Part shown: positions 27,619 to 49,962 of the stretch, piece by piece | How positions within the stretch are numbered: position 1 is the stretch's first letter | How the letters are laid out: each line of letters begins with the position of its first letter | Assembly (NCBI GenBank): GCA_963727825.1 | Contig: CAVSHO010000012.1 | Coordinates: forward strand, 12,061 to 76,060 | DNA from: Ignavibacteriota bacterium | Lineage (GTDB): Bacteria > Bacteroidota > Ignavibacteria > UBA10030 | Length of the DNA stretch: 64,000 bases | Direction of reading: 5' to 3' | Translations under genes and position numbers: made by a program | Notes under the pieces: generated by a model | Told to the model about the DNA's origin: nothing | The model's database searches: none | What the model saw: the letters and a program-made list of their open reading frames with translations, nothing else

Positions 27619-27853
27619 TTACTAGCAAATGCCCAAAGTGTTTTTCCATAATGCTATCTTTTACATTGACTTCCTCCCCTTTTAGGGGAGGACTTCTCCA
27701 CTCCTTTGAGGAGAGGGAAATATTTCTCTATTTACTAAAAAGATCTAGAGAAGTTATAATTAATAAAATAAGTAAGCTCGACTGTATTTCCAAGAGACAC
27801 ATTATTTTTTCGTAATAATATGCTTTTAGTGATTCTATTTTCAGACATAATAA

Positions 27854-27891
27854 AAAAGAAGCCCGTAAGCGTAATACTCACGGGCTTCTTT
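27854..27891 (-). terminator. Intrinsic terminator after the tRNA-Leu / GIY-YIG / tRNA-copy unit
   Basis: AAAGAAGCCCGT..ACGGGCTTCTTT stem, with a T-run on the minus strand. Confidence 0.7.
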
Positions 27892-27892
27892 G

Positions 27893-27995
27893 TGCCGAAG
27901 GGGGGACTCGAACCCCCACTCGATTTGAGTCGAACCTCGTAGAACGAGGCAAGCTGTATTTTGAGTCCAGTTTATCCCGACAAAGTCGGGACGCG
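27893..27995 (-). pseudogene. Partial 3' copy of tRNA-Leu interrupted by two hairpin insertions (27935-27953, 27971-27991)
   Basis: Matches the 3' portion of the tRNA at 28243 onward except for one substitution and the inserts CCTCGTAGAACGAGGCAAG and TTTATCCCGACAAAGTCGGGA. Confidence 0.88.
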
Positions 27996-28238
27996 CCTTT
28001 TCGTCAGTAACGAGTTCAATTCATAATGACCCGGTCCACTTTTAAGAAATTTCTCTCTTTTTCTTGCTTGCTGTCGATTAGGACATTCTTCTGTAAGAAG
28101 TAGTTGGAACGGTCGTCTATTTTTTGTCGATGGTACTTTTCCCTGATTGTGACGTATTAACCGCTTCTCTACATCTTCCGTCATTCCGATGTAAAGATTA
28201 TTATCTTTTAGAGATTTTAATACGTACACAAAAAACAT
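27972..28238 (-). CDS. Small stand-alone GIY-YIG nuclease
   Basis: VYVLKS..LYIGMT..RLIRHNQG..TKNRRPF..AR.REKFLKSG, 88 aa. Confidence 0.9.
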   Translation of the reverse strand: MFFVYVLKSLKDNNLYIGMTEDVEKRLIRHNQGKVPSTKNRRPFQLLLTEECPNRQQARKREKFLKSGPGHYELNSLLTKRRVPTLSG

Positions 28239-28242
28239 TCAG

Positions 28243-28328
28243 TGCCGAAGGGGGGACTCGAACCCCCACTCGATTTGAGTCGAACTGGATTTTGAGTCCA
28301 GCGCGTCTACCAGTTCCGCCACTTCGGC
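28243..28328 (-). tRNA. tRNA-Leu(CAA)
   Basis: GCCGAAGTGGCGGAACTGGTAGACGCGCTGGACT-CAA-AATCCAG..GGTTCGAGTCCCCCCTTCGGCA with a long variable arm. Confidence 0.95.
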
Positions 28329-28341
28329 GCTTCGTTTATTA

Positions 28342-28370
28342 AATATATCAAGGAATGACCTGCGAAACAA
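28342..28370 (-). promoter_or_regulatory. Candidate sigma70 promoter for tRNA-Leu
   Basis: TTGTTT-17 bp-TATATT on the minus strand just upstream of the tRNA. Confidence 0.45.
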
Positions 28371-28564
28371 GTTTTTTTCTTCAACAACTCTCAGAGTGTT
28401 TGAAAATTTCAAACTCACTACTTCGATACTAACTCGTCTGCTCTACATTCTAGCGGGACGAATTATATTCAAAAGAACAGTTGCCAAATGGAACTGTACG
28501 GCATCCTGCAATTTATTACTTTGAGCGGTAGAATACTTTGGAAGTCTTATGTAACGCATTAAAC

Positions 28565-29443
28565 TTAATTTCCCACACCCTCGCTGATAAACTTGCGAAC
28601 GGAAATCATACTTCCCAGCAATCCAAGGAGGCAGCCAATGCCTATGATAATGCCGTAGTAATAAGGCTGAACGCGGACAAATTCTGATAGCGAGACGGTC
28701 AACCACTGTTCTAAATATTTAAATAGCGTATAAATAATTCCAGCGGCGATTGCTCCTCCCAGCAGGCCCTGAAGAAATCCTTCCAGTAAAAATGGCGTAC
28801 GAATAAAGCTTCGCGTTGCACCAATAAGTTTCATTGTCTGTATAATTTTACGCTTTGCATAAATGGCAAGACGGATAGTGTTAGCTACTAAAATGACAGA
28901 TGAAATAGTGATAAAGATTCCAACACCAAGCGTAATCCAAAGAAACAACATCGCCCGCTGATCCAGCATTTCCAACAATTGTTTCCGGTAGATTACATCA
29001 TCCACGCCTTTGATGGATTTTACCTGACTGGAAATTACTTCAGCATGTTTTGCCGTCTTATAGCCGTCTTTTAAGAATATTTTGAGAGACGCCGGCAGCG
29101 GGTTGAAATTCAAAACTTTATAAATATCTTCGCCGAACTCTTCATTAAATATTTTCGCTGCTTCTTCTTTTGAAACGTAGCGAACCTCGCGCACGCCTTC
29201 CAGCATTTCTACTTGTCCTTTAACCTCGGTTACCTGATCGTTGGTGATTTGGTCGTTCAAAAACGCCTCCATTTCTACCTTTTCACGCAGCGATTTGACA
29301 AAACCATTTACATTCAAAAATAGAATTGTAAAAAAACTCAGCAGCAATAACGATACGCAAATAGTAAAAATTGCGGCAAACATCGACAGTTTGGCTCGCT
29401 TGAAACCTGAAAATCCCTCTTTTAAAACATATCCTAGTTGCAT
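28565..29443 (-). CDS. ftsX: Cell division permease FtsX
   Basis: NPLPASL, NTIRLAIYAKR, MKLIGATRSFIRTPFLLEG. Confidence 0.92.
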   Translation of the reverse strand: MQLGYVLKEGFSGFKRAKLSMFAAIFTICVSLLLLSFFTILFLNVNGFVKSLREKVEMEAFLNDQITNDQVTEVKGQVEMLEGVREVRYVSKEEAAKIFNEEFGEDIYKVLNFNPLPASLKIFLKDGYKTAKHAEVISSQVKSIKGVDDVIYRKQLLEMLDQRAMLFLWITLGVGIFITISSVILVANTIRLAIYAKRKIIQTMKLIGATRSFIRTPFLLEGFLQGLLGGAIAAGIIYTLFKYLEQWLTVSLSEFVRVQPYYYGIIIGIGCLLGLLGSMISVRKFISEGVGN

Positions 29444-29450
29444 ATTACTC

Positions 29451-30291
29451 TCACTTGCTATGGCGTGAAATAGCGGAATCGTCAAACGGCTGGTAACTCC
29501 CCAGCACGCGCACAAAAGAACAAACTTCTTCTAAATGATTTAATGCCTGACTCAGTGGATCTCGTTTAGGTATCCCTTCCACATCCAAATAGAAGAGATA
29601 TTCCCACGGTTTGCCGATTATCGGACGTGATTCAATTTTCAGTAAATTAATATCCCGCAATGCAAATACAGCAAGCGCTTTGAAGAGTGCGCCGGGAATA
29701 TCTTTTGCTGCAAATACGATTGAAGTCTTGACTTTGCCGAGCGGTTGAACCTGTTTTCGCGAGAGTGCAATGAAGCGTGTGAAATTGCGATGGTCACTCT
29801 CAACGTTTCGTTCCAGAATATGCAGTCCGTACGCACGCGCTGCTTGTTCGCTGGCGATAGCCGCTGCATCATTGCGTTTTCGTTCCTGGATAAACCGAGC
29901 AGCCGCTGCCGTATCATGCACGGCTTCCACTTTTACATCTTTTTAGTGTGCTGAGAAAGTTCTCGCACTGGCCAATCGCTTGCAATTGCGAGTAGATCGT
30001 GCGAATGCTATTCCGTTTTGCTTCGGGCAAAGCCATCAAATGCAGTTCGATGCGGAGTTTTACTTCACCGATTATAAAAAGCTTATGCTTCAGAAGAAGA
30101 TCGTACACCTGATGGATACTGCCGAATAGCGAATTCTCAATCGGCACAATGCCAAAGCTTGCGGGATGATGTTCGGCATCTGAAAAGACATCGGAAAAAG
30201 CAGGCAATGGTTTTAATATAGCATGGGCCCCAAAGAATTTTCGCGCTGCTTGTTCACTAAACGCACCTGGTTCACCCTGATAAGCGATCAT
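29451..30291 (-). CDS. pheA: Prephenate dehydratase, frameshifted in a homopolymer near 29940
   Basis: IAYQGEPGAFSE, VPIENS, NFTRF and LKIESRP spread over two overlapping ORFs. Confidence 0.9.
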
Positions 30292-30309
30292 AAGTAATTT
30301 CCCATTAAG

Positions 30310-30819
30310 TTAAAAATTTGATTCATCATCCCATCGGACAATCTTCCATGGATCCTGTGCTTGATTGCGTACCAATGTAAGATTAACATATCCGTCCACA
30401 TAAACAATATCACTCGGATTGAACGTAACCGTCAAATTAAACCCCCGCTTAATCATTTCTTGTGTATTGGTAGAATCAACGGAAGACGATGCTATATCAT
30501 TCCATAAAATATCCAATCGCTGAGCATTCTGGAATAGTCCGTATGTTGTCCGCATCTCCTCATCTCTTCCCCAAGTTACATCGACACCCATATCATAATC
30601 GTGATAAACAAATGTAAAGTTCCCGTCAAGAAGTTGTCCATAAATTGATGTATCGCGAACAGTGTAAGCATATTTGAAGTTTTGAAATATACCGTCGGCC
30701 GTTTTTTGGTCGCTCAGGAGCGATGATGTTTCTCCAGAAGAATCATCCAACCCAGGTGCGAATGGATTACAGGCAGCCAGTACCAAGATGAATGGTATGG
30801 AAATAAAGATGAATTTCAT
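30310..30819 (-). CDS. Lipoprotein of unknown function
   Basis: Lipobox LAAC; C-terminal WKIVRWDD. Confidence 0.75.
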   Translation of the reverse strand: MKFIFISIPFILVLAACNPFAPGLDDSSGETSSLLSDQKTADGIFQNFKYAYTVRDTSIYGQLLDGNFTFVYHDYDMGVDVTWGRDEEMRTTYGLFQNAQRLDILWNDIASSSVDSTNTQEMIKRGFNLTVTFNPSDIVYVDGYVNLTLVRNQAQDPWKIVRWDDESNF

Positions 30820-30822
30820 TAG

Positions 30823-31406
30823 TCACCATTGTGAATAAGCAATCCCCTTTAAGTCGCTCCATGTTGAGTCGGATACATTTACAGCAACATCCACCCACTG
30901 ATTGATATACCATAATCCCGATACTTGCGTAAGTGTATATTGCACTTGTCCGTTAGAATTTTTTAACCGACGCCTGCTTCCACTGGAAGAGTCAAATGAT
31001 AAGCAGTTTCCACCTGACTTATATTATTGTTATATGTCGGCGTATAAGGATCAAACACTAAAACCACTCTAGAATTATTTGAGAAGTGATTAATAATTTT
31101 TTCGAAGCATTGCTGTTCTTGCGCTTTATTCCAAGCCGTCCAATCAATACCGCCGTATTTGTTTTTAGCGTCAGTTGATGGGATAAAACTAAAAGAAGCA
31201 TCCGAAAATGATTTAGCATAGTTGACAGAATTTCCGTCCTGGAACGCGTTCACCATATTCTGCAATACTATTGATACATCTGTCGGAGGAACGTAATTTG
31301 AACTCTGTTGCGACGGCTCCTCCGGTGTTCTAGTCTTAAACAAATCACAGGATATCAAACTGAAACACAACATTATATTTATAGCCATAACAAAACTGCG
31401 CAGCAT
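30823..31406 (-). CDS. Lipoprotein, probable paralogue of its neighbour, frameshifted near 30950-30965
   Basis: Lipobox LISC; the C-terminus GQVQYTL..WYINQWVD..TWSDLKG continues in another frame to TGA at 30823. Confidence 0.65.
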
Positions 31407-31416
31407 CAAAGTTCCT

Positions 31417-32016
31417 TTATACAACGATGCGGCCTTCAAACGCTCTGGAAAGAGTCGCTTCGTCTGCAAATTCAAGATCAGAGCCGACCGGTAAACCACG
31501 TGCAATACGTGTTACCTTTATTCCCAGCGGTTTTAACAACCGGGAAAGATAGAGTGTTGTTGTTTCTCCTTCCACATTTGGGTTAAGCGCCAAGATAATT
31601 TCTTCGATTGTTGAAGTAGAAATACGCTGCAACAATTCCTTAATCTTCAACTCGTCGGGACCAATGCCGTCTAACGGTGAAAGTGCTCCCCCTAAGACAT
31701 GGTACAAACCTTTAAACTCGTTCGTCTTTTCAATAGCAAGGACATCGTGCGGCTCTTCGACAACACAGATTGAAGACCGTTCGCGTTTAGTATTAGAACA
31801 AATTGCACATGGATCGGTTTCAGTGATATTTGAGCAGATAGTACAATACCGTACTTTATCTTTCACATTAACCAATGCTTTTGCCATCGTAACGACTTCA
31901 TCGCGCGACATTTTCAAAACATAGAGGGCAAGACGCTGCGCAGTCTTCCTTCCTATACCCGGAAGTTGTGCAAATTGTTCAGCGAGTTGTTCAATTGATT
32001 CAGCAGTATAAAACAT
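31417..32016 (-). CDS. recR: Recombination mediator RecR
   Basis: [14 protein letters not shown]4 zinc finger, TOPRIM EGETT and IARGLPVG. Confidence 0.97.
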
Positions 32017-32074
32017 TATCAGATCTCATAGGTGCAAGGATTATCAAGAATTAAAATTTTAAGAGTTTTTATGA

Positions 32075-32419
32075 TTAAAAACCGGGAAGCTTCATACCGG
32101 GAATATTGGGTATCATTCCGCCGGTCGCTTTTTGCATTTCTTCCGCTGCCATTGCAGTTGATCGCTCCAATGCTTGATTTACAGCCGCTAGAACTAAATC
32201 CTCCAGCATCTCTTTCTCATCCGGATTTATTACTTCTTTCTCAATTTCAATTTTGATGATATGCTGTTTGCCATTGGCATTTACCCTCACCATACCTCCA
32301 CCGGCTTCGGCTGCAACAGTTTTGCTTTCAAGTTCCGCCTGAACTTGATCCATCTTCTCCTGCATTTTCTGCACTTGCTTCATCATTTGCTGCATATTCG
32401 GCATGCCGCCTTTGAACAT
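32075..32419 (-). CDS. ybaB: YbaB/EbfC nucleoid-associated protein
   Basis: AGGGMVRV and [12 protein letters not shown]; adjacent to recR. Confidence 0.95.
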
Positions 32420-32516
32420 TTTTTTGTCTCCTATATTTTTATTCTTAAATAATTTTCTGCGTCAATATACCCCGAAATGGAAGGAAAGTCAACGCACGAA
32501 ATTTTAAACGCCTATA

Positions 32517-32546
32517 TTGACTTTCGGAAAAAAATGGAGATATATT
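32517..32546 (+). promoter_or_regulatory. Candidate sigma70 promoter upstream of the tRNA-Asn tandem locus
   Basis: TTGACT-18 bp-TATATT. Confidence 0.5.
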
Positions 32547-32590
32547 AAGGTAAAGCTCATCAGTATTGATGAGTTTTTTAAATGATGTGA

Positions 32591-32836
32591 TTCCGCGATA
32601 GCTCAATGGTAGAGCATGCGGTCCGATCATCGCACAAGCGATGATCGAGATCTCGTCCCGATAAAATCGGGACGGACTGTTAACCAGACTTTGAAATAGG
32701 GAATTATTTTTCATTCCGCGATAGCTCAATGGTAGAGCATGCGGTCCGATCATCGCACAAGCGATGATCGAGATCTCGTCCCGATAAAATCGGGACGGAC
32801 TGTTAACCAGACTTTGAAATAGGGAATTATTTTTCA
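32591..32836 (+). repeat. Two 123-bp tandem units, each a 5' half of tRNA-Asn with a 55-bp multi-hairpin insert
   Basis: TTCCGCGATAGCTCAATGGTAGAGCATGCGG starts at 32591, 32714 and 32837 (period 123). The insert at 32622-32676 is absent from the real tRNA. Confidence 0.92.
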
Positions 32837-32837
32837 T

Positions 32838-32912
32838 TCCGCGATAGCTCAATGGTAGAGCATGCGGCTGTTAACCGCAGGGTTGTAGGTTCGAGTCCTA
32901 CTCGCGGAGCCA
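32838..32912 (+). tRNA. tRNA-Asn(GTT)
   Basis: TCCGCGATAGCTCAATGGTAGAGCATGCGGCT-GTT-AACCGCAGGGTTGTAGGTTCGAGTCCTACTCGCGGAGCCA. Confidence 0.96.
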
Positions 32913-32974
32913 ATTCATTTTGCCGTACCGCAGACGGGATTTGTTGTTTATAAGAGACTAACTCAAAACTACCT

Positions 32975-33240
32975 TTGTTTTATTTATATATACTCATCTG
33001 AATTTAATGGAATGTTTTAAGTTGGTATTAGTCCGAAAATCTTAGAACAGCGGCTTGAATTTACCATCTTTCAATAGGTAATGGATTCACAGCACGATAT
33101 CGTCCCTGGAAATTAGTATACACGAAAGGATATCCAACGCGACAGCTGGCTCGAGTGCTGAAAAGAAAATCAAAACAAGGAAAAGCAGATCGATGATTTA
33201 ACATTTCATCTAATGATGTTTGGGATTATTCGGATTATTA
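32975..33240 (+). pseudogene. Decayed GIY-YIG nuclease gene
   Basis: Fragments ENLEQRLEF, GNGFTARYRPWKLVYTKGYPTRQLA and AEKKIKTRKSRSMI, broken by stops and frameshifts. Confidence 0.75.
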
Positions 33241-33260
33241 ACCATTCCGTCGATTTCTGA

Positions 33261-33343
33261 CTGTAGGGTTGTAGGTTCTCCCGCTCCATCATAATGGAAC
33301 GGGACTATTAACCCCGACGTTTTATGTCGGGGCTCTCGGAGCA
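33261..33343 (+). pseudogene. Degenerate 3' copy of tRNA-Asn with two hairpin insertions
   Basis: AGGGTTGTAGGTTC [TCCCGCTCCATCATAATGGAACGGGA] CTATTAA [CCCCGACGTTTTATGTCGGGG] CTCTCGGAGCA. Confidence 0.7.
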
Positions 33344-33353
33344 CTTATAAATG

Positions 33354-33385
33354 AAAGGTCGAAATAGATTTTCGACCTTTTTTTC
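33354..33385 (+). terminator. Intrinsic terminator
   Basis: AAAGGTCGAAA-TAGAT-TTTCGACCTTT followed by a T-run. Confidence 0.75.
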
Positions 33386-33422
33386 TTACACCCATCTCAG
33401 AAAGAAAAATATTTTCTTATTT

Positions 33423-34619
33423 CTATAATCTTCGAATTCTAAACACAACTGCCAAATAAAAAGCGGTAATAATAGTTCCGATTGCTGACACACTAAACGT
33501 CACCGCTGGCGAAAACGCATACCACAACCATCCGGCTAAACTGCTCGCCAGTAAAGTGCAAATGCTTTGCATTCCAGTGTAGAATCCGATGGCAGTCGCC
33601 ACATCATTTTTAGAGACAATATTAGAAATCCATGCTTTAGAAATTCCTTCAGTGCTCGCAGCATACATTCCGTAGAGAAAAAACAATGCAAGTAATACAG
33701 GCATAGATGCAGCAAAAATGATCCCGCCATAAACAATCGCAAATAAAACCAATCCTGCGAAGAATATCAATTTTAATCCAATTTTGTCTCCCAACGCTCC
33801 CAGCGGATACGACATCAACGCATAGACAAGATTATAGAAAATATAGATTCCAATCACCTGTTGATCTGTCGCCCTTTGGTGCCGCATCATCAAAAGAAGC
33901 AGCACATCCGAACTATTCATCAATGCAAAAAAGAGAAGACCAACCACAAGTAGACGAAATTCGCGGGGAGCAATTTTCCAATATTTTAAGAAAGAGAAAA
34001 ATCCGGATCTAGCATTATATGCAGACATTTTTTCAATATGTACATTTCTATCTTCCTTTATAAGAAAGGTTATCGCAATAGCAATTATCCCCGGGATAAA
34101 AGCAATCAGAAATAATGTTCTATACTGCGCCGGGTAAAATATAAGAAAAATTAAAGCCGCCAATGGACCAAGTGCGGCTCCGATCGTGTCGAATGCCCGA
34201 TGGAAACCGAATACTCTTCCCTTAAACTCTGGAGTTGTTTCAGCGGAGAGCATTGCATCGCGTGCACCAGTGCGAATCCCTTTTCCTAACCTGTCTAGCG
34301 TACGTGCACCGAATATCCAAAGTGGAAACGTAAATACTGCCATCATCGGTTTGGAAATTGCACTTAGGGAATATCCCATTTGAACAAATATCTTTCGTTT
34401 ACCAATGTTATCTGAAAGATTTCCAAAATATCCTTTACTCAAACCGGCGGTAGCTTCTGCAATTCCTTCTAACAAACCAATAAGCGCAACAGAAAACCCG
34501 ATATTCGTGAGATACATTGGCATAATCGGATAAAGCATCTCGCTTGCTACATCAGTAAAAAGACTCACGATAGATAGAACTAGGATTGTACGTGTGATAA
34601 TTCTCATTGTTCTCCTCAC
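33423..34619 (-). CDS. MFS transporter
   Basis: SDNIGKRK, DRLGKGIRTGARDA and GFHRAFDTIGA. Confidence 0.9.
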   Translation of the reverse strand: MRRTMRIITRTILVLSIVSLFTDVASEMLYPIMPMYLTNIGFSVALIGLLEGIAEATAGLSKGYFGNLSDNIGKRKIFVQMGYSLSAISKPMMAVFTFPLWIFGARTLDRLGKGIRTGARDAMLSAETTPEFKGRVFGFHRAFDTIGAALGPLAALIFLIFYPAQYRTLFLIAFIPGIIAIAITFLIKEDRNVHIEKMSAYNARSGFFSFLKYWKIAPREFRLLVVGLLFFALMNSSDVLLLLMMRHQRATDQQVIGIYIFYNLVYALMSYPLGALGDKIGLKLIFFAGLVLFAIVYGGIIFAASMPVLLALFFLYGMYAASTEGISKAWISNIVSKNDVATAIGFYTGMQSICTLLASSLAGWLWYAFSPAVTFSVSAIGTIITAFYLAVVFRIRRL

Positions 34620-34767
34620 GCTCTTTCTGATGATAATATACTAAGTGATTTTTATGAGCGCAATTATCTGCTTTTTTAACAGAACATTTCAGTGGATTCA
34701 CAGAAAAAGTTTCTTATATTTTTCGGAAATAAATTTTCAACTTTTTGGTGTTGAGAGTAGGAGCAGT

Positions 34768-36087
34768 ATGGACTTCATATCAATCCTCCGAGGTCTCTTT
34801 GGCCTCATAGTTATTACAGCCCTCGCCTATATTTTTTCCGACAATAAGAAAAAAATTAATTGGAAATTGGTCACCAGCGGCATCATAATGCAATTTGCCT
34901 TTGCATTTATCGTCGTGAAAACCGATATCGGCCGGGAGATTTTCAGTTATTGCAGTAAATTCTTCGTATGGCTCTTCAGTTTTGCAAGTGACGGGGCACA
35001 ATTCGTTTTCGGTGGATTGGCGAAAAACGTGGGCACTGATGGAAGCCTTGGCTCTTTCTTTGCCTTTCAGGTTCTTCCAACTATTATTTTCTTTGTATGT
35101 TTTATGAGCATCCTCTACTATCTCGGCATTATGCAGCGTATCGTTCAAGGCATTGCGTGGATAATGCTGCGTTTGTTGGGAACAAGTGGGGCAGAATCTC
35201 TTGATGTCGCGGCAAATACATTCATCGGTCAAACAGAAGCTCCGGTCGTTATCCGGCCTTACCTTGCTACACTGACCAATTCCGAACTCTTCACTATTAT
35301 GACAAGCGGTATGGCACACATCGCTGGTGGGGTACTTGCCGCATATATGCAGATGCTCGGCTTGGCATATGCGAAAGCTAATGGCTTGCCAATTGACGCA
35401 TCGCAGGTATATTTTGCCGGTCATCTCCTCGCAGCAAGCATTATGGCAGCCCCTGCAACTATGGTGGTTGCAAAAATGTTAATGCCGGAGACCAGTGAGC
35501 CCCTCACGATGGGAACCGTGCGCGTCAAGATCGAACGGACTCATTCCAACATTATCGAAGCGGCTGCAGGCGGCGCAGGCGATGGCGTGCGCCTTGCAAT
35601 TAATGTTGCCGGAATGCTTATCGCATTCATTGCGATAATTGCGTTGATAAATGCATTATTGGGTTACGTCGGTGATATTTCTGGATTAAATGCCGTCTGC
35701 CAAACACAGTTCCATCAAAAATTATCGCTCGAACTTCTTTTCGGACTTATTTTCCAGTTCATTGCATTCACTATCGGTGTCCCCTGGCACGACTCACTCA
35801 ATGTTGGCAGTTTGATGGGAATTAAATTGGTGGTCAATGAATTTGTCGCTTATTTGCGAATGGCCGATATGATCTCAGCAGGTATGCTTTCGCCAAAAGC
35901 GATTGTGATTTCTACTTACGCTCTTTGCGGGTTCGCGAATTTTTCATCTATTGCTATTCAAATTGGCGGTTTAAGTCCGCTTGCTGAAAATCGTCGCAGC
36001 GATATCGCAAAATTAGGATTGAAAGCGGTACTCGGCGGTACAATCGCAACATGGATGACGGCATCGATAGCCGGGCTTCTTTGCTAA
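34768..36087 (+). CDS. nupC: Concentrative nucleoside transporter (NupC/CNT family)
   Basis: FAFQVLPTIIFF, GQTEAP, KLVVNEFVAY and ALCGFANFSSIAIQIGG. Confidence 0.93.
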   Translation: MDFISILRGLFGLIVITALAYIFSDNKKKINWKLVTSGIIMQFAFAFIVVKTDIGREIFSYCSKFFVWLFSFASDGAQFVFGGLAKNVGTDGSLGSFFAFQVLPTIIFFVCFMSILYYLGIMQRIVQGIAWIMLRLLGTSGAESLDVAANTFIGQTEAPVVIRPYLATLTNSELFTIMTSGMAHIAGGVLAAYMQMLGLAYAKANGLPIDASQVYFAGHLLAASIMAAPATMVVAKMLMPETSEPLTMGTVRVKIERTHSNIIEAAAGGAGDGVRLAINVAGMLIAFIAIIALINALLGYVGDISGLNAVCQTQFHQKLSLELLFGLIFQFIAFTIGVPWHDSLNVGSLMGIKLVVNEFVAYLRMADMISAGMLSPKAIVISTYALCGFANFSSIAIQIGGLSPLAENRRSDIAKLGLKAVLGGTIATWMTASIAGLLC

Positions 36088-36149
36088 TTGATGTTACGCA
36101 CTAATAATTTTTTATTAAAGGATTTATAGTTCTTTATATGATTGTCCAC

Positions 36150-36478
36150 CTCCCTATCCCGACCCGATTTTGCATCGTGTGGGGATTTCCCCTCCCCGCC
36201 TGCTGCGGGCAGGCTCAAACGAGGAGGAGCGTATTAAAGTAATTCCACGAAGTGAAATTACAATAAATGCGCAGATTTTTCTTTAAAGGGGTGGTTTACT
36301 TTGTTTTATTATATTCCATGTTTATCAGCATAAAAGATGGCTTTGCGTAACATTAGTTGCTAGAGACCTCTGAAAAACATTATTTGTCATTTCGATCGCA
36401 GGGAGAAATCTTTCTTTTTATTAAGATTTCTCAGTCTCCCGATCGACGTTGTCGTTCGGGATTCTTCGAAATGACAAT
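36150..36478. repeat. Intergenic cluster of REP-like palindromes, including a TGTCATTTCGA..TCGAAATGACA doublet with inserted hairpins
   Basis: CCCGCCTGCTGCGGGCAGG near 36195-36213; doublet about 36385-36477 containing TCCCGATCGACGTTGTCGTTCGGGA. Confidence 0.6.
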
Positions 36479-36537
36479 CCCGAATATTGCAGAAGTTTCT
36501 GCAAATTAATTTTCATGGTCTAAATCAAGGATCGTTC

Positions 36538-38142
36538 ATGAACGACACTCAGAAGAATTACAAATGGTTTGTTCTCGAAGACTGGAATGGGTTCTTCGGA
36601 CTCATATTCGACAATTTGACTGTCCTTTCCTTCCTTGCAGGTATTCTTATTTTCGTTTTTAAATATCCGGCAGATGTTGTATATACGAGAATGTTTCCCG
36701 GAACTGCATTCGGTGTATTGTTCGGCGATCTTATCTATACTTGGATGGCGTTCCGGTTAGCGAAGAAAACCGGTAATACAAAAGTAACCGCAATGCCGCT
36801 CGGTCTCGATACACCATCAACAATTGGGATTGCGCTCGTGGTACTTGGTCCCGCCTTTATCGGCTTGAAGGCAGAAGGAATTTCTGAGCGTGACGCGGCT
36901 ATGATGACCTGGTATATCGGTATGGCAACCATGGTGTTTATGGGTATCATCAAATTTGTATTCTCTTTTTTAGGTCGATGGGTGCAGAAGATTGTTCCGC
37001 AAGCAGGATTGCTTGGTTCCCTCGCGGGTATCGGGCTTGCGTTGATCGGAATGACTCCCTTGATCGACATTTTCGGCATGCCGCTTGTTGGACTTATTGC
37101 GCTTGGAATGATTTTTTACACATTGATTGCTGGAATTAAATTGCCGTTTAAAATTCCGGGAGTATTCGCATCGGTTGCAGTCGGAACTGTACTCTATTAT
37201 CTCCTCGGTCCCTCCGGAATTGTTGGTGGAACATACGCCGGGCCTCCTCCTGCTGAACTCCATTTTGGCCTACCCTTACCTACGTTAGATTTTATTAAAG
37301 GACTTGCTCCTGCACTCAAGTATCTTCCCATTGCTATTCCCTTCGGTATATTAACAGTCGTCGGCGGAATCAACGTAACGGAAAGTGCACGGGTTGCTGG
37401 TGACGATTACAGTACACGGAATATCCTTCTAACAGAAGCAATTGCTACTCTCATTGCTGGAATTTGCGGCGGTGTCGCTCAGTCAACGCCTTATATCGGA
37501 CAACCAGCTTACAAACATATGGGTTCACGGGCGGGATATACTTTTCTCACCGGTGTTTTTATTGGATTGGGCGGAATTTTTGGATATATATCGTTTATTG
37601 TTGAACTTATCCCGCGTGCTGTATTAGCGCCGATTCTCATCTTCGTTGCATTTGATATTATCGCGCAATCATTTCAAGCGTGCCCGGCACGGCATGCACC
37701 GGCGATCGCCTTTGCATTCTTCCCGACAATCGCGCGTTTGTTGGCAATCAAATTAGGAAATACAGACGCAGTGCTTCCGGAAACCTTCAATAAACTAATG
37801 GCAGTCCCGGGAAAAGCATTACCTGAATTGCTTATCATCGTTGCGCTTGGCAATGGATTCATCGTCACGGGAATGTTATGGGGCGCATTCCTCGCCGAAC
37901 TCATCGATCGTCGGTTGCGGGCATCGGCGGCATACTTGATCGCCCTGGCAGCGTTAACGTTTTTCGGAATAATCCATTCTGCATTACCTGATGGAATGAT
38001 GTATTTGCCATGGAATCTTGATGGATTAGCCAGACAGGTTCCATATCAATTCACAGTGGCGTATTTAGCATTGGCGGCTTTCTTCTTTGCTATGTCTTTT
38101 ACAAAGGAAAGCAGAGAACCGATCACTGGAATAGGACACTAA
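36538..38142 (+). CDS. Nucleobase permease-like membrane protein (NCS2/AzgA-related)
   Basis: Many TM segments; TAMPLGLDTPS, ESARVAGDDY and YIGQPAYK; next to nupC. Confidence 0.75.
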   Translation: MNDTQKNYKWFVLEDWNGFFGLIFDNLTVLSFLAGILIFVFKYPADVVYTRMFPGTAFGVLFGDLIYTWMAFRLAKKTGNTKVTAMPLGLDTPSTIGIALVVLGPAFIGLKAEGISERDAAMMTWYIGMATMVFMGIIKFVFSFLGRWVQKIVPQAGLLGSLAGIGLALIGMTPLIDIFGMPLVGLIALGMIFYTLIAGIKLPFKIPGVFASVAVGTVLYYLLGPSGIVGGTYAGPPPAELHFGLPLPTLDFIKGLAPALKYLPIAIPFGILTVVGGINVTESARVAGDDYSTRNILLTEAIATLIAGICGGVAQSTPYIGQPAYKHMGSRAGYTFLTGVFIGLGGIFGYISFIVELIPRAVLAPILIFVAFDIIAQSFQACPARHAPAIAFAFFPTIARLLAIKLGNTDAVLPETFNKLMAVPGKALPELLIIVALGNGFIVTGMLWGAFLAELIDRRLRASAAYLIALAALTFFGIIHSALPDGMMYLPWNLDGLARQVPYQFTVAYLALAAFFFAMSFTKESREPITGIGH

Positions 38143-38152
38143 AGGATTTTTT

Positions 38153-38917
38153 ATGTTTCGTTCTGCGTTCGTTTGGATTACAACATGCATACTTATTCTC
38201 CTTTGGCTTTTCTTATTAGCAATAAGTCGATTGTTTGATCATGATCCGGTGCACTATCGGACTGGCTTTCTATTCCGAAAAATCGGGAATGCACTAACCT
38301 GGATCAATCCTGCATGGCGGCTTCACATTACCGGTGAAATTATTTCCAATCCGCGACTGCCGTACGTCGTTGTCTGTAATCATCAATCGATGGCTGATAT
38401 TCCATTGATCAGCAACTTGCCATGGGAAATGAAATGGATGGCGAAAACAGAAATATTCAAACTACCAATCCTCGGCTGGATGCTGCGGCTTGCAGGCGAT
38501 ATTAGTGTTGATCGAAAAAATCCACGCAGCGGCGCTCAAGCGCTCATCAAGGCACAGCATATTCTTGAACAAAAATGTTCCGTTATGATTTTTCCGGAAG
38601 GAACGCGCACTCTTGATGGACGAGTGCGGCAATTCACAGACGGAGCATTTCATCTTGCTATCAAAGCTAAAGTCCCTATACTTCCTCTCGTCATTGAAGG
38701 TTCGCGCGATTGCATCCCGAAGAACAGTTGGAAATTCGGCAAGCCATCGGATATCTTTCTGAAAGTGCTGCCGCCAATCGAAACATCTTCATTGACAATA
38801 CAGGACGTTCCTTTGCTTCGTGACAATGTCCGTACAGCAATTATGAAACAAATTGCAGAATGGCGCTCGGTTCCGATTGAAGCAGTGGATGGGATGATGC
38901 CACTTTCGACAAAATAG
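38153..38917 (+). CDS. plsC: 1-acyl-sn-glycerol-3-phosphate acyltransferase
   Basis: NHQSMAD and FPEGTR motifs. Confidence 0.9.
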   Translation: MFRSAFVWITTCILILLWLFLLAISRLFDHDPVHYRTGFLFRKIGNALTWINPAWRLHITGEIISNPRLPYVVVCNHQSMADIPLISNLPWEMKWMAKTEIFKLPILGWMLRLAGDISVDRKNPRSGAQALIKAQHILEQKCSVMIFPEGTRTLDGRVRQFTDGAFHLAIKAKVPILPLVIEGSRDCIPKNSWKFGKPSDIFLKVLPPIETSSLTIQDVPLLRDNVRTAIMKQIAEWRSVPIEAVDGMMPLSTK

Positions 38918-39119
38918 GAAACAGCAATTTTAAAAGTCGAGAGGAAAAACGAGAAGTCAAATCTCAGATTGCTTCATCGTTAAATCTACCAAAGGGTGTG
39001 AGCATTGCAATCAGGCGGGTTAAAGCATAAAGGCAATATTTTAAGGAAGGACAATCGAGAGATTGCCCTTCTTCATTTTATACAGGAATACAAAAATAGA
39101 CATAGTATTATATACTCAC

Positions 39120-40010
39120 CTACTTGGTAATATCCAAAAGCTCCTTAGGGACATGAAAACCTAATTCTTTCGCTCTTTTGAAATTTGAATGCGCTTCGCT
39201 CTTTTTGTTAAGTCGCGCGTATGCGAGCCCCCTGTCATAGTAGGCGAGTGCAAAGTCCGGGTTCAAAACGATTGCCTTGGTGAAGTCAGCAATGGCTCCT
39301 TGATAGTCCTTAAGCGTATACCTTGTCAAGCCCCTGCCATTGTAGGCTTCTGAATCATTCGGGTTCAAACCGATTGCCTTGGAGAAGTCAGCAATGGCTC
39401 CTTGATAGTCTTGAAGCATATACTTTGCTTTCCCCCTGCCGTTGTAGGAAATTTGTGCATCCTCAGGGTTCAAACCGATTGCCTTGGAGAAGTCGGAAAT
39501 GGCTTCCTGATAGTCTTGAAGTGTATGCTTTGCGTATCCCCTGTAATAATAGACATCTGCATAATCTGGTTTCAGCTTGATTGCCTCATTGTAGTCGGTA
39601 ATAGCTCCCTGACAATCTTCAAGATTAAACTTTGCGAACCCCCTGTAATAATAGGCATCTACAAAGTCCGGTTTCAGCTTGATTATTTCATTGAAGTCAA
39701 CAATTGCGCCTTGATGGTCTTCTAGATTCCGCTTTGCAATCCCTCTGAATAGATAGGCTTCCGCAAAATCCGGTTTCAGTTTGATTGCCTCGTTGAAGTC
39801 AGCAATAGCTTCTTGCCATTCGTTAAGTTCACTCTTTGCGTTTCCTCTGTGTAGGAAGGCTTCTGCATAATCTGGTTTCAGTTTGATTGCCTCATTGATG
39901 TCAGCAATGGCTCCCCGATAGTCTTGATGTATACACTTTTCGAGCCCCCTAAGATAGTAGGCTTTAGCATCATCCAGTTCCATACCGATTGACTTTTTGA
40001 ACAGACTCAT
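39120..40010 (-). CDS. Tetratricopeptide repeat protein (about 8 TPRs)
   Basis: 34-aa repeats AY..RG..K..L.DYQGAIADF..AI.L.PD. Confidence 0.93.
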   Translation of the reverse strand: MSLFKKSIGMELDDAKAYYLRGLEKCIHQDYRGAIADINEAIKLKPDYAEAFLHRGNAKSELNEWQEAIADFNEAIKLKPDFAEAYLFRGIAKRNLEDHQGAIVDFNEIIKLKPDFVDAYYYRGFAKFNLEDCQGAITDYNEAIKLKPDYADVYYYRGYAKHTLQDYQEAISDFSKAIGLNPEDAQISYNGRGKAKYMLQDYQGAIADFSKAIGLNPNDSEAYNGRGLTRYTLKDYQGAIADFTKAIVLNPDFALAYYDRGLAYARLNKKSEAHSNFKRAKELGFHVPKELLDITK

Positions 40011-40260
40011 CTTATGCTCCTCGTACGTTTATACAATTATATTTAATAATATAACAACAAAATATGCTCTTTGACAATGACCTTCCATTTATTTAAGTTT
40101 AAATGACATTCACCTATACCAGAGAGGTTTAGTATATTTTGAAAGTTATCCACTTGATACTCAGTTCGTTCACAGCAAAACAGAATGTTTTGGAAAAATA
40201 TAGATAGCTACATTTATAGATGGGTATGGAAAGGTTATTAAATTATAAAAGGAGTTTTTC

Positions 40261-40848
40261 TTGCTCTCTTGGGAATTCCAACAATTTTATAATAATTGGC
40301 TTCATAAAGCTGATTCATACAATACTGATGATTTAACAGACTGTTTTGATAAGTTTTTTACCCTATTCGTTCTGTACAATCGTCTTTATGCCGAAACCAC
40401 GTTTGAACTTGCTCGTGTCGGCAAGATTAATTTAAGTAATCACAAATATTTCCCTGATTCAAAAGCGGCAACTTGTTATATAAAACAATTTCTTGGCGCA
40501 AATGCCATACTTGATTGTATAAATTCAAATCCATCTTCTCATTGCGCCTTATCAAATATTATTTCTCTTATTGAAGCAGAAAGATTTCACATACTTTTGC
40601 ATCTAATTACTGGTGAAGGACAACGAAAAAAGGACATTGAACTTCTTGAATCACTTCGTTCAACAAATCCAGATTTAAAAGCAGGCGCCATTTTACAATT
40701 AATATATTCAATAAGATGTAATTTATTTCATGGACACAAATCATTTGAAGGAGTGCAAAAAGAGATTGTTGTTCCTGTTTTAGTTATCCTTCATAATATT
40801 GTTGTATGTCTCTATAATAAACTTAACGCCGCCCTAACCCACGGCTGA
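40261..40848 (+). CDS. Hypothetical protein with a HEPN-type Rx4H motif; probable former integron cassette
   Basis: IRCNLFHGHK motif, low GC, GGAG ribosome-binding site; the stop codon lies inside an attC half-site. Confidence 0.65.
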   Translation: MLSWEFQQFYNNWLHKADSYNTDDLTDCFDKFFTLFVLYNRLYAETTFELARVGKINLSNHKYFPDSKAATCYIKQFLGANAILDCINSNPSSHCALSNIISLIEAERFHILLHLITGEGQRKKDIELLESLRSTNPDLKAGAILQLIYSIRCNLFHGHKSFEGVQKEIVVPVLVILHNIVVCLYNKLNAALTHG

Positions 40849-40856
40849 AGCTGACG
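40831..40856 (+). mobile_element. Truncated attC (R''-L'' half)
   Basis: GCCCTAACCCACGGCTGAAGCTGACG resembles GCCTAACCCGCGGCTCAAGCTGACCG of the array attC (reverse complement of 61776-61801). Confidence 0.7.
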
Positions 40857-41103
40857 AAATGAGGTTGGTTTTTTTGTTCCATTATATCGTTATTCTTTAT
40901 TTTGCCTTCACCATTTTGATTTGATTTCTTAAGCTGGTGATGATGTCTTGCTGAACACGGCATCTATCCATCAAGTGCCGTATCTGATTTTCTTTCGATT
41001 CTATCTCGGCATCTAATCTTATTTCCTCACCATTTTTTTTCTGAATGTATGATGCGTCAAAAAAAAGAGCTGAATCCATTAAAGGAATCAACTCTTTTCG
41101 ATT

Positions 41104-41181
41104 TGTGGGCCCTGCTGGGCTCTCCGCCAAAGGCGGATGCGCCTTCCACCAAAAAATGGCGGACAAGCTGGCGCAGAACCA
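41104..41181 (-). pseudogene. 3'-end copy of tRNA-Ile2 with nested hairpin insertions
   Basis: TGTGGGCCCTGCTGGGCTC [TCCGCCAAAGGCGGATGCGCCT [TCCACCAAAAAATGGCGGACAAG] CTGGCGCA] GAACCA. Confidence 0.8.
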
Positions 41182-41195
41182 CGGCTTATTTTTTG

Positions 41196-41269
41196 TGGGC
41201 CCTGCTGGGCTCGAACCAGCGACCCGCAGATTATGAGTCTGCTGCTCTAACCAACTGAGCTAAGGGCCC
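41196..41269 (-). tRNA. tRNA with CAT anticodon, most likely tRNA-Ile2 (lysidine)
   Basis: GGGCCCTTAGCTCAGTTGGTTAGAGCAGCAGACT-CAT-AATCTGCGGGTCGCTGGTTCGAGCCCAGCAGGGCCCA. The acceptor stem is Ile2-like and not initiator-like. Confidence 0.92.
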
Positions 41270-41314
41270 AATGTTAACTTAAATTAAAATCTCTTATCTA
41301 TTTTTGAAGATCTA

Positions 41315-41595
41315 CGACCCGCAGATTATGAGTCTGCTGCTCCCCGCCCGACTGCACGATGCAATCGTGCGGGCAGGTAACCAACTGTTTACCCGCCGTG
41401 CCTTACCTTTTGGCGGGAGCTAAGGGCCCGAATGTTAACTCAAAATTAACAATCTCTTATCAATTTTTGAAGATTTAGGACCCGCAGATTATGAGTCTAG
41501 ATGCTCCCCGCCCGACTGCACGGAATGCATACTCGTGCTGGGCAGTTCCCAACTGATTTACCCGTCCGTGCCTTATTTTATGCCGCGAGAGCTCG
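41315..41595 (-). repeat. Two tandem (about 163 bp) 5'-portion copies of tRNA-Ile2, each with two hairpin insertions
   Basis: GACCCGCAGATTATGAGTCT at 41221, 41316 and 41479. Inserts at 41343-41377 and 41388-41417. Spacer 41270-41314 repeats at 41431-41477. Confidence 0.85.
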
Positions 41596-41676
41596 ACGAA
41601 GCTCGTGACGGGAATCTAACTATTAGATAAATTGCACATGTAAAAATAACCCACTCTTGACGATTTCTCGTGCGCA

Positions 41677-49500: not shown

Positions 49501-49631
49501 TCAACTCGTTCGTAGTGAATTGAATATTCCGATTTCTCCAATTGTCTTAGAACAAGTTCAGCATCGATTTTTGAGTCCTCAACAATTAGAACCCGCAGCA
49601 ATATTTTCATATCAACTTTTCGCTTCTTCAT
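46545..49631 (-). CDS. Hybrid sensor histidine kinase (REC-4xPAS-HisKA-HATPase-REC)
   Basis: [16 protein letters not shown] and both REC domains. A short off-frame stretch near 49270-49305 suggests compensating frameshifts. Confidence 0.93.
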   Translation of the reverse strand: MKKRKVDMKILLRVLIVEDSKIDAELVLRQLEKSEYSIHYERVETAKDMEAALEKQTWDIVISDYKLPGFNAPAALAILQKTKLDIPFIVVSGSIGEETAAELMKAGAQRLSDERQTFPFVPLVKRELAEAQLWRKHKKVEEESQLLAQAVKSIKDCISITDLENNILFVNDSFITTYGYSEAELLGKNISIVRSSIVSSKESDAIQSGTMKNGWHGEIRNRRKNGTEFTVELWTSVVKNNSGAPIAMVGVARDITERKKAEEALRARDIQFEKLAAQVPGMIYQFMQKPDGTFCVPLTSEGIRDVFGCSPQDVRDDFSPIAKVILPEDLSNVINSIKRSAEHLTLFQCEYRVQIPDGPIRWMYGQSMPEKLNDGSIIWHGFNTDITERKRAEETLAKEQFLMNILMDNVPDYIYFKDKESRFIRMNKSLAARFGLSDPAEAMGKTDFDFFTEQHAQLAFKDEQKIIKIGKPLIGFEEKETWPDGSETWVTTTKMPLRDREGEIIGTFGISKDITERKKAEIELKESEERYRRLVEFSPDAIAVHSEGKIVYVNPAAITLLGANSASELVGKPFLDIIHPDYRDSIHQQIIAVVKEEYALPLTEQKFMRVDGSVIEVEVAALPIIYKEKRAMQIVVRDISEQKKLQSQLLQTQKIQSIGTLAGGIAHDFNNILGIILAYSSLLNKSQLSPDKFATSITAINQAVQRGAALVRQILTFARKTDIVFEPTNISELIHELLSMLDQTFPKTIIFSENIADSLPLIFADRTQIHQALLNLCVNARDAMPDGGSISIAAGKHTREQITQQFPSANEEAYVCLTVTDTGKGMDKATCARVFDPFFTTKEKGKGTGLGLSVVYGVIQAHHGFIDLKSEPGRGTTFQVFFPVIASNRQAIDSQHSIESFEVGGTETILFVEDEEMLIQMVNFLLESKGYNVLCARDGLEAVNIYQSHMQEIALVITDLGLPVLTGSDEFKKLKEVNPSVKVIFASGYFEPDIKSELLKDGAKGFIQKPYEPNDVLRIIRQILDQKA

Positions 49632-49728: not shown

Positions 49729-49840
49729 GTCCCGCATAGCGGGACGAGGTATTTTGTCACTCCCGCGTACGCGGGAGTCTAACGTTCTGGATTCCTCCCG
49801 ACTTTGTCGGGACGGGAATGACGCCGCAAGCGGCGGGGTA
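49729..49840. repeat. REP-like doublet TGTCACTCCCGCG..CGGGAATGAC with an inserted TCCCGACTTTGTCGGGA hairpin and flanking hairpins
   Basis: Direct inspection. The insert is the reverse complement of the hairpin at 27975-27991. Confidence 0.7.
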
Positions 49841-49962
49841 TTAAATCCGAAAAAGAATTAAATTATTTTTTCTCCTTCCCCAAAAGGGAAGGTGACTAAT
49901 CAGATAAAATAGTTCTGACAATTATCATAAATTATGACGACAAATAAATAATATGCATAATA

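Follow-up and report, generated by a model that had tools for sequence, protein, structure and literature searches.

A minimal GIY-YIG nuclease gene between intact tRNA genes and their hairpin-interrupted partial copies: a candidate selfish cassette resident in bacterial tRNA operons

A 64,000-nucleotide stretch of an Ignavibacteriota genome (GenBank assembly GCA_963727825.1, contig CAVSHO010000012.1, positions 12,061 to 76,060 of the forward strand; hereafter the window, to which all coordinates refer unless a locus label is given) raises the question of why its tRNA genes are each accompanied by broken copies of themselves that carry small hairpins, and of what a gene for an 88-amino acid (aa) GIY-YIG protein does between such a tRNA gene and its copy. 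Exactly three intact, uninterrupted tRNA genes are found in the window by ARAGORN and Rfam in agreement: tRNA-Leu(CAA) at 28242..28328 (minus strand; Rfam RF00005, 62 bits), tRNA-Asn(GTT) at 32838..32912 (plus strand), and a tRNA with the anticodon CAT at 41195..41269 (minus strand), which ARAGORN labels Met and the initial annotation had read as Ile2. When each of these genes was compared with the whole window by blastn-short, seven partial self-copies were located, with nothing comparable elsewhere in the window. Short GC-rich stem-loops interrupt each of the seven copies or directly precede or abut it. The initial annotation of this stretch had described three intact tRNA loci flanked by seven hairpin-bearing partial self-copies, with one intact tRNA always left by the duplication, and this description holds. 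We propose, with a probability of roughly 0.55, that the locus is a selfish cassette that resides in tRNA operons and is widespread across bacterial phyla. In the best reading, the cassette consists of a GIY-YIG gene for about 80-90 aa, at least one short GC-rich palindrome from a set of three conserved families, and a duplicated part of the tRNA gene in which it resides.

At the Leu locus, the open reading frame (ORF) of the GIY-YIG protein (27972..28238, minus strand, 88 codons) is free-standing between host genes, and its ATG lies 3 nt downstream of the end of tRNA-Leu. It is followed by a pseudo-copy of tRNA-Leu positions 28-87 (27892..27970, minus strand), in which positions 44-87 (27892-27935) match in 44/44 bases (E 2e-20) and positions 28-40 lie at 27958-27970. 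A 19-nt hairpin (about 27936-27954) interrupts this pseudo-copy at 43/44 or 44/45, and the same 19-nt insert recurs in three related loci (L001-L003). A terminator-like hairpin with a T run, of the intrinsic type, ends the unit (27855..27891, minus strand; terminator scan). Another hairpin, TCCCGAC-N3-GTCGGGA (27975..27991; hairpin scan), which belongs to the palindrome family P3 defined below, encodes the last residues of the nuclease (VPTLSG), overlaps its stop codon, and lies at tRNA position 26/27 of the pseudo-copy. It is kept in related loci with a compensatory T-A to C-G change.

The 88-aa protein matches the profile PF01541 with 56.7 bits against a curated cut-off of 22.6 (E 3e-15) and consists of the GIY-YIG domain alone, its only other Pfam match being the overlapping T5orf172. 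Its structural relatives in the Protein Data Bank are the UPF0213 protein BH0048 (1zg2, E 1e-7) and 1ywl (E 1.5e-4). Residues Y5, Y16, G18, R26, H30, and E62 are invariant across 28 homologues; the conserved Tyr of both motifs, the Arg, and the Glu are the catalytic residues of GIY-YIG enzymes. By these matches the protein is classed as a minimal stand-alone GIY-YIG protein of the UPF0213/prokaryotic Slx1-like type and as a putative nuclease. A separate DNA-binding module was not found in the 88 aa, with the group-I-intron endonuclease model scoring 19 bits against a cut-off of 56. A prediction of the homodimer from two copies of the nuclease gave a score of 0.00 and no verdict, so that it counts neither for nor against binding.

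The Asn and CAT loci contain similar parts in other combinations. Upstream of tRNA-Asn, two tandem units of 123 bp, identical at 123/123 positions, form a 5' array without a nuclease gene (32592..32837, plus strand; blastn-short and hairpin scan). Each unit consists of tRNA-Asn positions 1-30 (starting at 32592 and 32715, E 4e-12), a 55-nt double hairpin, positions 31-39, and a 28-nt spacer. Downstream of tRNA-Asn, a degenerate 3' pseudo-copy of about positions 31-75 (33232..33344, plus strand) is recognized by an exact 14-mer (positions 42-55 at 33265-33278), the remainder being assigned by eye; it contains hairpins, for example at 33312-33332, and is followed by a terminator-like hairpin (33353..33381, plus strand; terminator scan). 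The 5' array of the CAT locus (41270..41600, minus strand; blastn-short) likewise lacks a nuclease gene and consists of two tandem units of tRNA positions 1-50, with hairpin inserts at 13/14 and 22/23 and a 45-nt spacer in each, the upstream unit being more decayed; the pieces aligned are positions 23-50 at 41315-41342, 30-49 at 41479-41498, and 1-13 at 41417-41429. On its 3' side (41105..41194, minus strand), a 72-nt spacer filled with hairpins, one of them at 41123-41137, is followed by a pseudo-copy of positions 58-75 (41105-41122). The terminator scan reports no terminator-like site after this copy, where an imperfect AT-rich stem with a T run is seen by eye. Thus, the tandem 5' copies previously noted upstream of tRNA-Asn and the CAT tRNA are confirmed by blastn-short, and the 3' copies said to precede a terminator do so at Leu and Asn, but not by the scan at CAT.

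A GIY-YIG gene of about 90 codons had also been assigned to both the Leu and Asn loci. The assignment stands for Leu. At Asn, tblastn with 44 homologues gives 11 matches (best E 6.6e-4) to a region with several in-frame stops (32975..33193, plus strand), which is a pseudogene rather than an open 90-codon gene. Another tblastn match, at 52816-52893 (E 0.017), was dismissed as chance; it lies inside a 259-aa ORF on the opposite strand. No integrase or transposase domain is found in the 19 ORFs scanned, 18 of which lie within 26.3-44 kb and one of which is a sensor kinase gene at 743-4483, in agreement with the initial annotation. The 18 ORFs are housekeeping genes and include those for FtsX, MFS transporters, RecR, YbaB, prephenate dehydratase, a nucleoside transporter, and an acyltransferase.

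The arrangement recurs in other genomes. A protein search gives 44 relatives of the 88-aa nuclease, and a genome scan gives 79 loci, which derive from the best 80 of 568 confirmed subfamily hits and are therefore not a random sample. They span about 20 phyla, among them Ignavibacteriota, Bacteroidota, many Patescibacteria lineages, Omnitrophota, Planctomycetota, Elusimicrobiota, Fidelibacterota, and Pseudomonadota, and include the cultured isolates Zunongwangia, Mesonia, Aquimarina, Maribacter, and Melioribacter. A tRNA gene lies within 500 bp of the nuclease gene in 54 of the 79 loci, or adjacent to it in 56 when overlap with the end of the match is included, against a chance expectation of about 5%, as estimated from the 36 tRNAs found at distances above 1.5 kb in about 0.8 Mb. 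All such tRNAs are on the strand of the nuclease gene in 55 of the 56 loci. Partial copies accompany 50 of the 88 adjacent tRNAs, as compared with 6 of the 36 distant ones. A chained partial copy of the tRNA lies across the gene from the tRNA in 41 of the 56 loci, as compared with 2 of 251 control windows located 2.5-6 kb away; a strict chaining criterion was used, permissive chaining having given many noise blocks of 3-6 nt. A comparison of this kind had been proposed with the initial annotation, and the outcome supports the claim of an integrase-free, nuclease-linked unit tied to tRNA genes. The N-terminal extensions of several annotated relatives are translated tRNA-Leu, and tblastn of one relative (P0005) covers the tRNA-Leu of the window, indicating that the same tRNA-gene junction is present in other genomes. 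Many matches sit at contig ends, the contigs breaking at the locus.

The loci are arranged in two orders. In type A, the tRNA is followed by a gap of 0-20 nt, the nuclease gene, a pseudo-copy that extends from position 9-59 to the 3' end, and the native terminator. In type B, a pseudo-copy that extends from position 1 to position 15-77 is followed by the gene, a gap of 3-30 nt, and the tRNA. Because the gene is on the same strand as the tRNA with a gap of 0-30 nt, there is no room for a promoter of its own. Both types are found within one Leu-associated clade in the same Lys-Leu neighbourhood (L008, L009, and L013 versus L011 and L012). Tandem arrays of whole units are found in Zunongwangia atlantica (L074, four units of 316 bp) and in an Omnitrophota genome (L017, two units of 380 bp). 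A 666-bp Melioribacter contig (L049), whose name gives a coverage of 753x, holds one unit, made up of tRNA-Cys, the nuclease gene, and a pseudo-Cys with a hairpin, and runs into a second, identical unit; it is probably a collapsed multi-copy array or a circle. Arrays without a nuclease gene (L027, with five units of 99 bp, and L035) resemble the 5' units of Asn and CAT in the window. A 5' piece upstream and a 3' piece downstream of the same tRNA are found in several cases, for example at Asn and CAT and at L013-Lys, L031, L035, L038, L056, and L073-Ala. In three of them, the pieces sum to about one gene (1-39 and about 31-75 for Asn, 1-50 and 58-75 for CAT, 1-77 and 72-88 for L031). The simplest reading is that they arise by repeated duplications with one end-point inside the tRNA gene; alternatively, an older copy was split by an insert that restores the whole gene.

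The nuclease gene is under purifying selection. The ratio of nonsynonymous to synonymous substitution rates is 0.03-0.27 in 12 of 16 pairs, the other 4 pairs being saturated at synonymous sites. Across the 7 Leu loci aligned, the long segment of the pseudo-copy agrees with the intact tRNA of the same genome at every base but one, in L003, and the Leu pseudo-copies share lineage-specific bases of the variable arm and T arm with the intact tRNA of their own genome. This concerted evolution indicates ongoing gene conversion. A 16-nt piece between two hairpins has a private C-to-A change common to four genomes, and the more fragmented pseudo-copy of L003 has a new mismatch. The hairpin at 43/44 is identical at 19/19 positions between the window and L001-L003, whose nuclease genes differ at about 70% of synonymous sites, and compensatory changes are found in 6 of 17 hairpin base pairs. 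The hairpins are thus constrained parts of the unit rather than debris.

A tree of 80 proteins, built from a short alignment and weakly resolved, contains a main clade of 56 rows (SH-aLRT 88), 48 of which have an adjacent tRNA, versus 9 of the 24 rows outside it (counts made by hand from the labels). The more distant relatives outside the clade thus mostly lack an adjacent tRNA (15 of the 24 rows). The sub-clades track the tRNA type and the hairpin family (Cys with P2, Leu-CAA with P3, Arg and Met with P1), while phyla are mixed within them. As to horizontal spread, the signs are mixed: clades mix phyla and the Asn copy is decayed, yet the Leu locus appears vertical, and binning errors are possible. 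Near-identical nuclease proteins are found in different phyla in two cases, L050 and L076 (Moraniibacteriota and Bdellovibrionota) and L029 and L047 (Chlorobiota and Myxococcota), which represent binning errors if not recent transfer. Among the relatives in the tree that lack a tRNA, L044, L065, and L066 have reading frames that extend far past the GIY-YIG match (ORFs of about 200-275 codons), and these relatives may be fused to another domain. Searches of phage and plasmid collections by tblastn yield only distant relatives of 33-42% identity (16 phage and 5 plasmid records), and neither of the two phage regions examined contains an adjacent tRNA; thus, no transfer vehicle is found.

The hairpins are more frequent than expected by chance. 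The window contains 20 perfect GC-rich hairpins, as compared with 0-6 in 20 shuffles. In the related loci, the DNA up to 150 bp from the nuclease gene contains 3.09 hairpins per kb, as compared with 0.23-0.26 per kb beyond 1 kb. A stem-loop is predicted in all 32 pseudo-copy inserts of at least 8 nt, with minimum free energies of -3.5 to -46.6 kcal/mol (values without a shuffle control). Of these inserts, 21 lie in tRNA loops or arm junctions and 11 were scored as lying in stems; however, 7 of the 11 occupy the Leu 43/44 site, for which a placement at the 44/45 junction is just as good, so that clear stem inserts number 4, against a stem expectation of 42%. Many of the 32 inserts are inherited rather than independent, and by our own count they go back to about 19 separate events, of which 16 affected loops or junctions. 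Judged by eye, hairpins are usually located 6-22 nt inward from the gene-facing end of the pseudo-copy. An origin of the hairpins as P-nucleotide-type copies of the flanking tRNA was rejected by eye, because the hairpin arms do not match the flanks. A parse as terminal inverted repeats works only inside tandem arrays and fails at single copies.

Three palindrome families can be distinguished: P1 (CCTGCCTGCCGGCAGGCAGG), P2 (CCCGCC-N3-4-GGCGGG), and P3 (CCCGAY-N2-5-RTCGGG). They occur 11, 24, and 21 times within 400 bp of the gene (78 kb) and 2, 6, and 17 times elsewhere (984 kb), and are thus concentrated 15- to 55-fold near the nuclease gene, the families being common to distant phyla. The same 20 bases of P1 are found in Flavobacteriia isolates, a Margulisiibacteriota genome, a Gammaproteobacteria genome, Saccharimonadota, and another Patescibacteria genome, with a one-base variant in Scalindua; in those genomes P1 always lies within a pseudo-copy of a local tRNA (Arg, His, Asn, or Met). 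The idea that spare tRNA copies collect hairpins, put forward with the initial annotation, is not borne out in that simple form, in view of the concentration of three cross-phylum families beside the gene, the 19/19 identity, and the compensatory pairing, so that the interpretation given there is partly supported overall.

How would such a cassette persist and spread? We suggest that it would be transcribed from the tRNA promoter, and that tRNA end-processing would release a nearly leaderless mRNA. The nuclease would then break DNA in or beside tRNA genes or at its own palindromes, and might be structure-selective like Slx1, the eukaryotic form of which is structure-specific, or directed to the T arm, as phage SegB is. 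Repair of the breaks by recombination between tRNA repeats would carry the cassette into cognate tRNA genes that lack it. The same repair would also give rise to duplications that end within the tRNA on one side, to arrays through unequal exchange, and to conversions of type A into type B or the reverse. Selection would retain one intact tRNA. The palindromes would chop the repeat into pieces too short for efficient recombination, thereby stabilizing the cassette, and may also destroy the nuclease site in the spare copy.

Several points weigh against this proposal. No ARAGORN tRNA is found within 500 bp of the gene in 23 of the 79 loci, a set chosen by match strength. The duplication end-points are scattered (positions 9-59 in type A and 15-77 in type B), so that there is no single cut site. 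Any target borne by the tRNA is retained in the intact tRNA next to the cassette. The 88-aa protein has no DNA-binding domain with which to find a target. The Leu arrangement, with its conserved flanks and terminator, looks old and vertically inherited, and such vertical persistence is unlike that of a short-lived homing gene. Hairpins are also fairly dense around tRNAs far from the gene (1.76 per kb, a figure that includes terminators), and the origin of the palindromes is not accounted for by the cassette model. Cleavage and mobility are proposed parts of the model.

The chief rival, which we consider rather doubtful and which is compatible with the cassette proposal, is that mobility belongs to the palindromes themselves, with the GIY-YIG protein acting as the nuclease specific to them. 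The partnership would resemble that of REP and RAYT. In REP/REPIN systems, a single small nuclease gene is flanked by short GC-rich palindromes that co-vary with it and are co-inherited over long periods, and RAYT is an HUH Y1 enzyme. The palindromes here similarly flank the nuclease gene, are enriched near it, and include some solo copies, whereas the nuclease is of the GIY-YIG rather than the HUH Y1 fold and is tied to tRNA gene duplicates. According to this explanation, insertion occurs into single-stranded loops, tRNA genes are hot because they fold, only duplicated copies survive, and the nuclease gene is located where its elements pile up. The identity of the three families in distant phyla, their concentration near the gene, and their agreement with the nuclease clades all favour it. 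So do hairpins nested in the loop of another hairpin (L003 and the CAT copy of the window), a T-loop site at which different hairpins have independently inserted in L003, L006, and L009, and solo copies elsewhere. Among the latter is a 21-nt P1 palindrome (CCTGCCTTGCCGGCAGGCAGG; 1206..1226, hairpin scan) in frame in the gene for a 1246-aa sensor kinase (743-4483, minus strand). It adds 7 residues to the HATPase_c domain as compared with the paralogous kinase at 46545-49631, and the HATPase_c match is stretched to 128 residues. An intergenic cluster of four perfect GC-rich hairpins (49729..49892, hairpin scan) includes the 17-mer of 27975. However, the mobility of palindromes alone leaves unexplained the position of the gene between an intact and a broken tRNA and the tandem arrays, P3 is only 15-fold enriched, with 17 copies far from the gene, and we know of no strand-transfer chemistry in the hydrolytic GIY-YIG enzymes.

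Further intergenic clusters of perfect GC-rich hairpins at 633-733 and 27672-27692, like that at 49729-49892, have no tRNA or nuclease gene nearby and could be remnants of older pseudo-tRNAs, and a perfect palindrome with a 12-bp stem at 17982-18009 (GTAGGGACGTAT-AGCT-ATACGTCCCTAC) is unlike P1-P3.

It is possible, and we state it only tentatively, that the cassette and the palindromes form a two-part mobile system shared by many phyla. The 80-90 aa GIY-YIG protein would recognize its own GC-rich palindromes of 15-20 nt and spread them into single-stranded loops of folded DNA, namely tRNA-gene cloverleaves, other hairpins, and occasionally coding genes. The gene would ride in tRNA operons, with a working tRNA on one side and a duplicate disabled by palindromes on the other, paralleling REP/RAYT in function with a different nuclease fold and with tRNA duplication as its niche.

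A role of the protein as a host-beneficial factor of tRNA metabolism, retained in tRNA operons and directed either at RNA or at the copy number of tRNA genes, seems unlikely. The hairpins and tRNA arms would in that case be RNA elements of the untranslated regions that stabilize or process the message. The location of the gene on the tRNA strand with tight spacing, the strong purifying selection, the old and vertically inherited Leu arrangement, and the compensatory changes in 6 of 17 hairpin pairs are in its favour. In the pseudo-Leu copies of L006 (560-584) and L010 (393-417), moreover, the linker CAAG/CTTG left by two flanking hairpins extends the anticodon stem to 9 bp, an extension not made by the corresponding linker TAAA in the window, L001, and L002. 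A fusion of a prokaryotic Slx1-like domain to TrmH has also been reported (PMC1564403). In contrast, the tRNA used differs between lineages, and both polarities, multi-copy arrays, pseudogenes, and nuclease-less arrays are found. Near-identical proteins occur across phyla, contigs break at the locus, and one palindrome lies within a coding gene. These points fit selfish DNA better than a housekeeping operon.

In L001 (10258-10347), the hairpin and pseudo-Leu copy are together called a 90-nt tRNA-Gly by ARAGORN. If wobbles are allowed, the 3' hairpin arm (GTCGGGG) is able to pair with the former 3' strand of the acceptor, which may reflect chance or a tRNA-like fold.

It is very improbable that the partial copies are att-type scars of departed integrase islands or phages, with the nuclease gene as leftover cargo. 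Duplication of a tRNA 3' end is the classic mark of integrase-mediated islands, and the 3' copies do adjoin the native terminator. The 18 ORFs scanned within 26.3-44 kb contain no integrase, however, the whole insert is only about 0.3-0.4 kb, integration at the 3' end cannot yield 5' copies or type B, and the compact layout recurs in 41 loci, so that this explanation is already largely refuted. An artefact of assembling or binning repeats in metagenome-assembled genomes is scarcely credible: the window and many loci come from metagenome bins, with many matches at contig ends, but the layout is also found in the cultured Zunongwangia, Mesonia, Aquimarina, Maribacter, and Melioribacter, and each pseudo-copy matches the tRNA of its own genome.

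The proposed cassette shares features with several known systems. It resembles the tRNA islands and prophages of integrases in that a functional tRNA is restored while a partial copy, now displaced, lies beside the native flank. The likeness is one of form only, with the insert enclosed by direct repeats of the tRNA 3' end, since the loci here differ in lacking an integrase, in their insert of 0.3-0.4 kb, in having 5' as well as 3' copies, and in the palindromes of the spare copies. The in-frame 21-nt insert at 1206-1226 is like the Rickettsia palindromic elements, which lie in frame in protein-coding genes, are about 100-150 bp long, and are confined to one genus; to our knowledge, they have no partner nuclease. 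Unlike elements of the miniature inverted-repeat or terminal-inverted-repeat transposon type, the hairpins are not flanked by a short target-site repeat of fixed length, and the single-copy nuclease gene is not bounded by half-palindromes, as judged by eye and without a scan. Prokaryotic stand-alone GIY-YIG proteins have been classed with Slx1 (PMC1564403), and the UPF0213 proteins YhbQ, BH0048, and EF2693 have the same minimal domain without an accessory domain. The tRNA-gene context and palindromes found here are not reported for that group in the sections consulted (PMC1564403).

The closest analogue appears to be phage SegB, a GIY-YIG homing endonuclease encoded in the T4 tRNA cluster, which recognizes a T-arm motif of tRNA genes (PMC2330249) and drives the UvsX/UvsY-dependent tandem amplification of a 718-bp unit of tRNA-Tyr and segB (PMC13096335). 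The likeness, as far as the available text of these papers extends, lies in a free-standing GIY-YIG nuclease gene among tRNA genes, as in T4 and T6, and in tandem units of tRNA and nuclease gene, the amplification by SegB being recombination-dependent. Hairpin-broken tRNA pseudo-copies and a palindrome family are found here and are unmentioned for SegB in the same text (PMC2330249, PMC13096335). The proteins here are furthermore cellular rather than phage-borne, consist of about 88 aa, and are related to UPF0213 rather than to Seg. SegB is much larger and has a DNA-binding part. A full-text literature search, outside which lie about 1.7 million further PMC articles and the subscription journals, returned no description of the arrangement or of the palindrome (searched as 16- to 20-nt strings). 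The arrangement therefore appears undescribed, and there looks to be a real chance that it represents a new nuclease-palindrome system.

Near the loci described, the prephenate dehydratase gene (29451-30291, minus strand) is split into two overlapping ORFs that match the PDT profile at 1-115 and 122-180, with an A-rich stretch near 29914-29930; the split reflects a frameshift or else an error in sequencing.

For enzymology, a nuclease of 88 aa that acts on a defined target, structured or palindromic, would be of interest, and the idea is directly testable, because the cultured hosts Zunongwangia, Mesonia, Aquimarina, Maribacter, and Melioribacter exist. Because the pseudo-copies adjoin their intact originals, they provide a natural before-and-after record of palindrome insertion sites. 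If the proposal is correct, it would account for the recurrence of duplicated tRNA genes, of pseudo-tRNAs, and of contigs that break at tRNA loci in metagenome assemblies, as well as for annotation errors such as ORFs read through tRNA genes and a hairpin and pseudo-copy called tRNA-Gly. The cassette would then represent a widespread and very compact class of selfish DNA in bacteria, resident in Ignavibacteriota, Bacteroidota, many Patescibacteria, Omnitrophota, Planctomycetota, and others.

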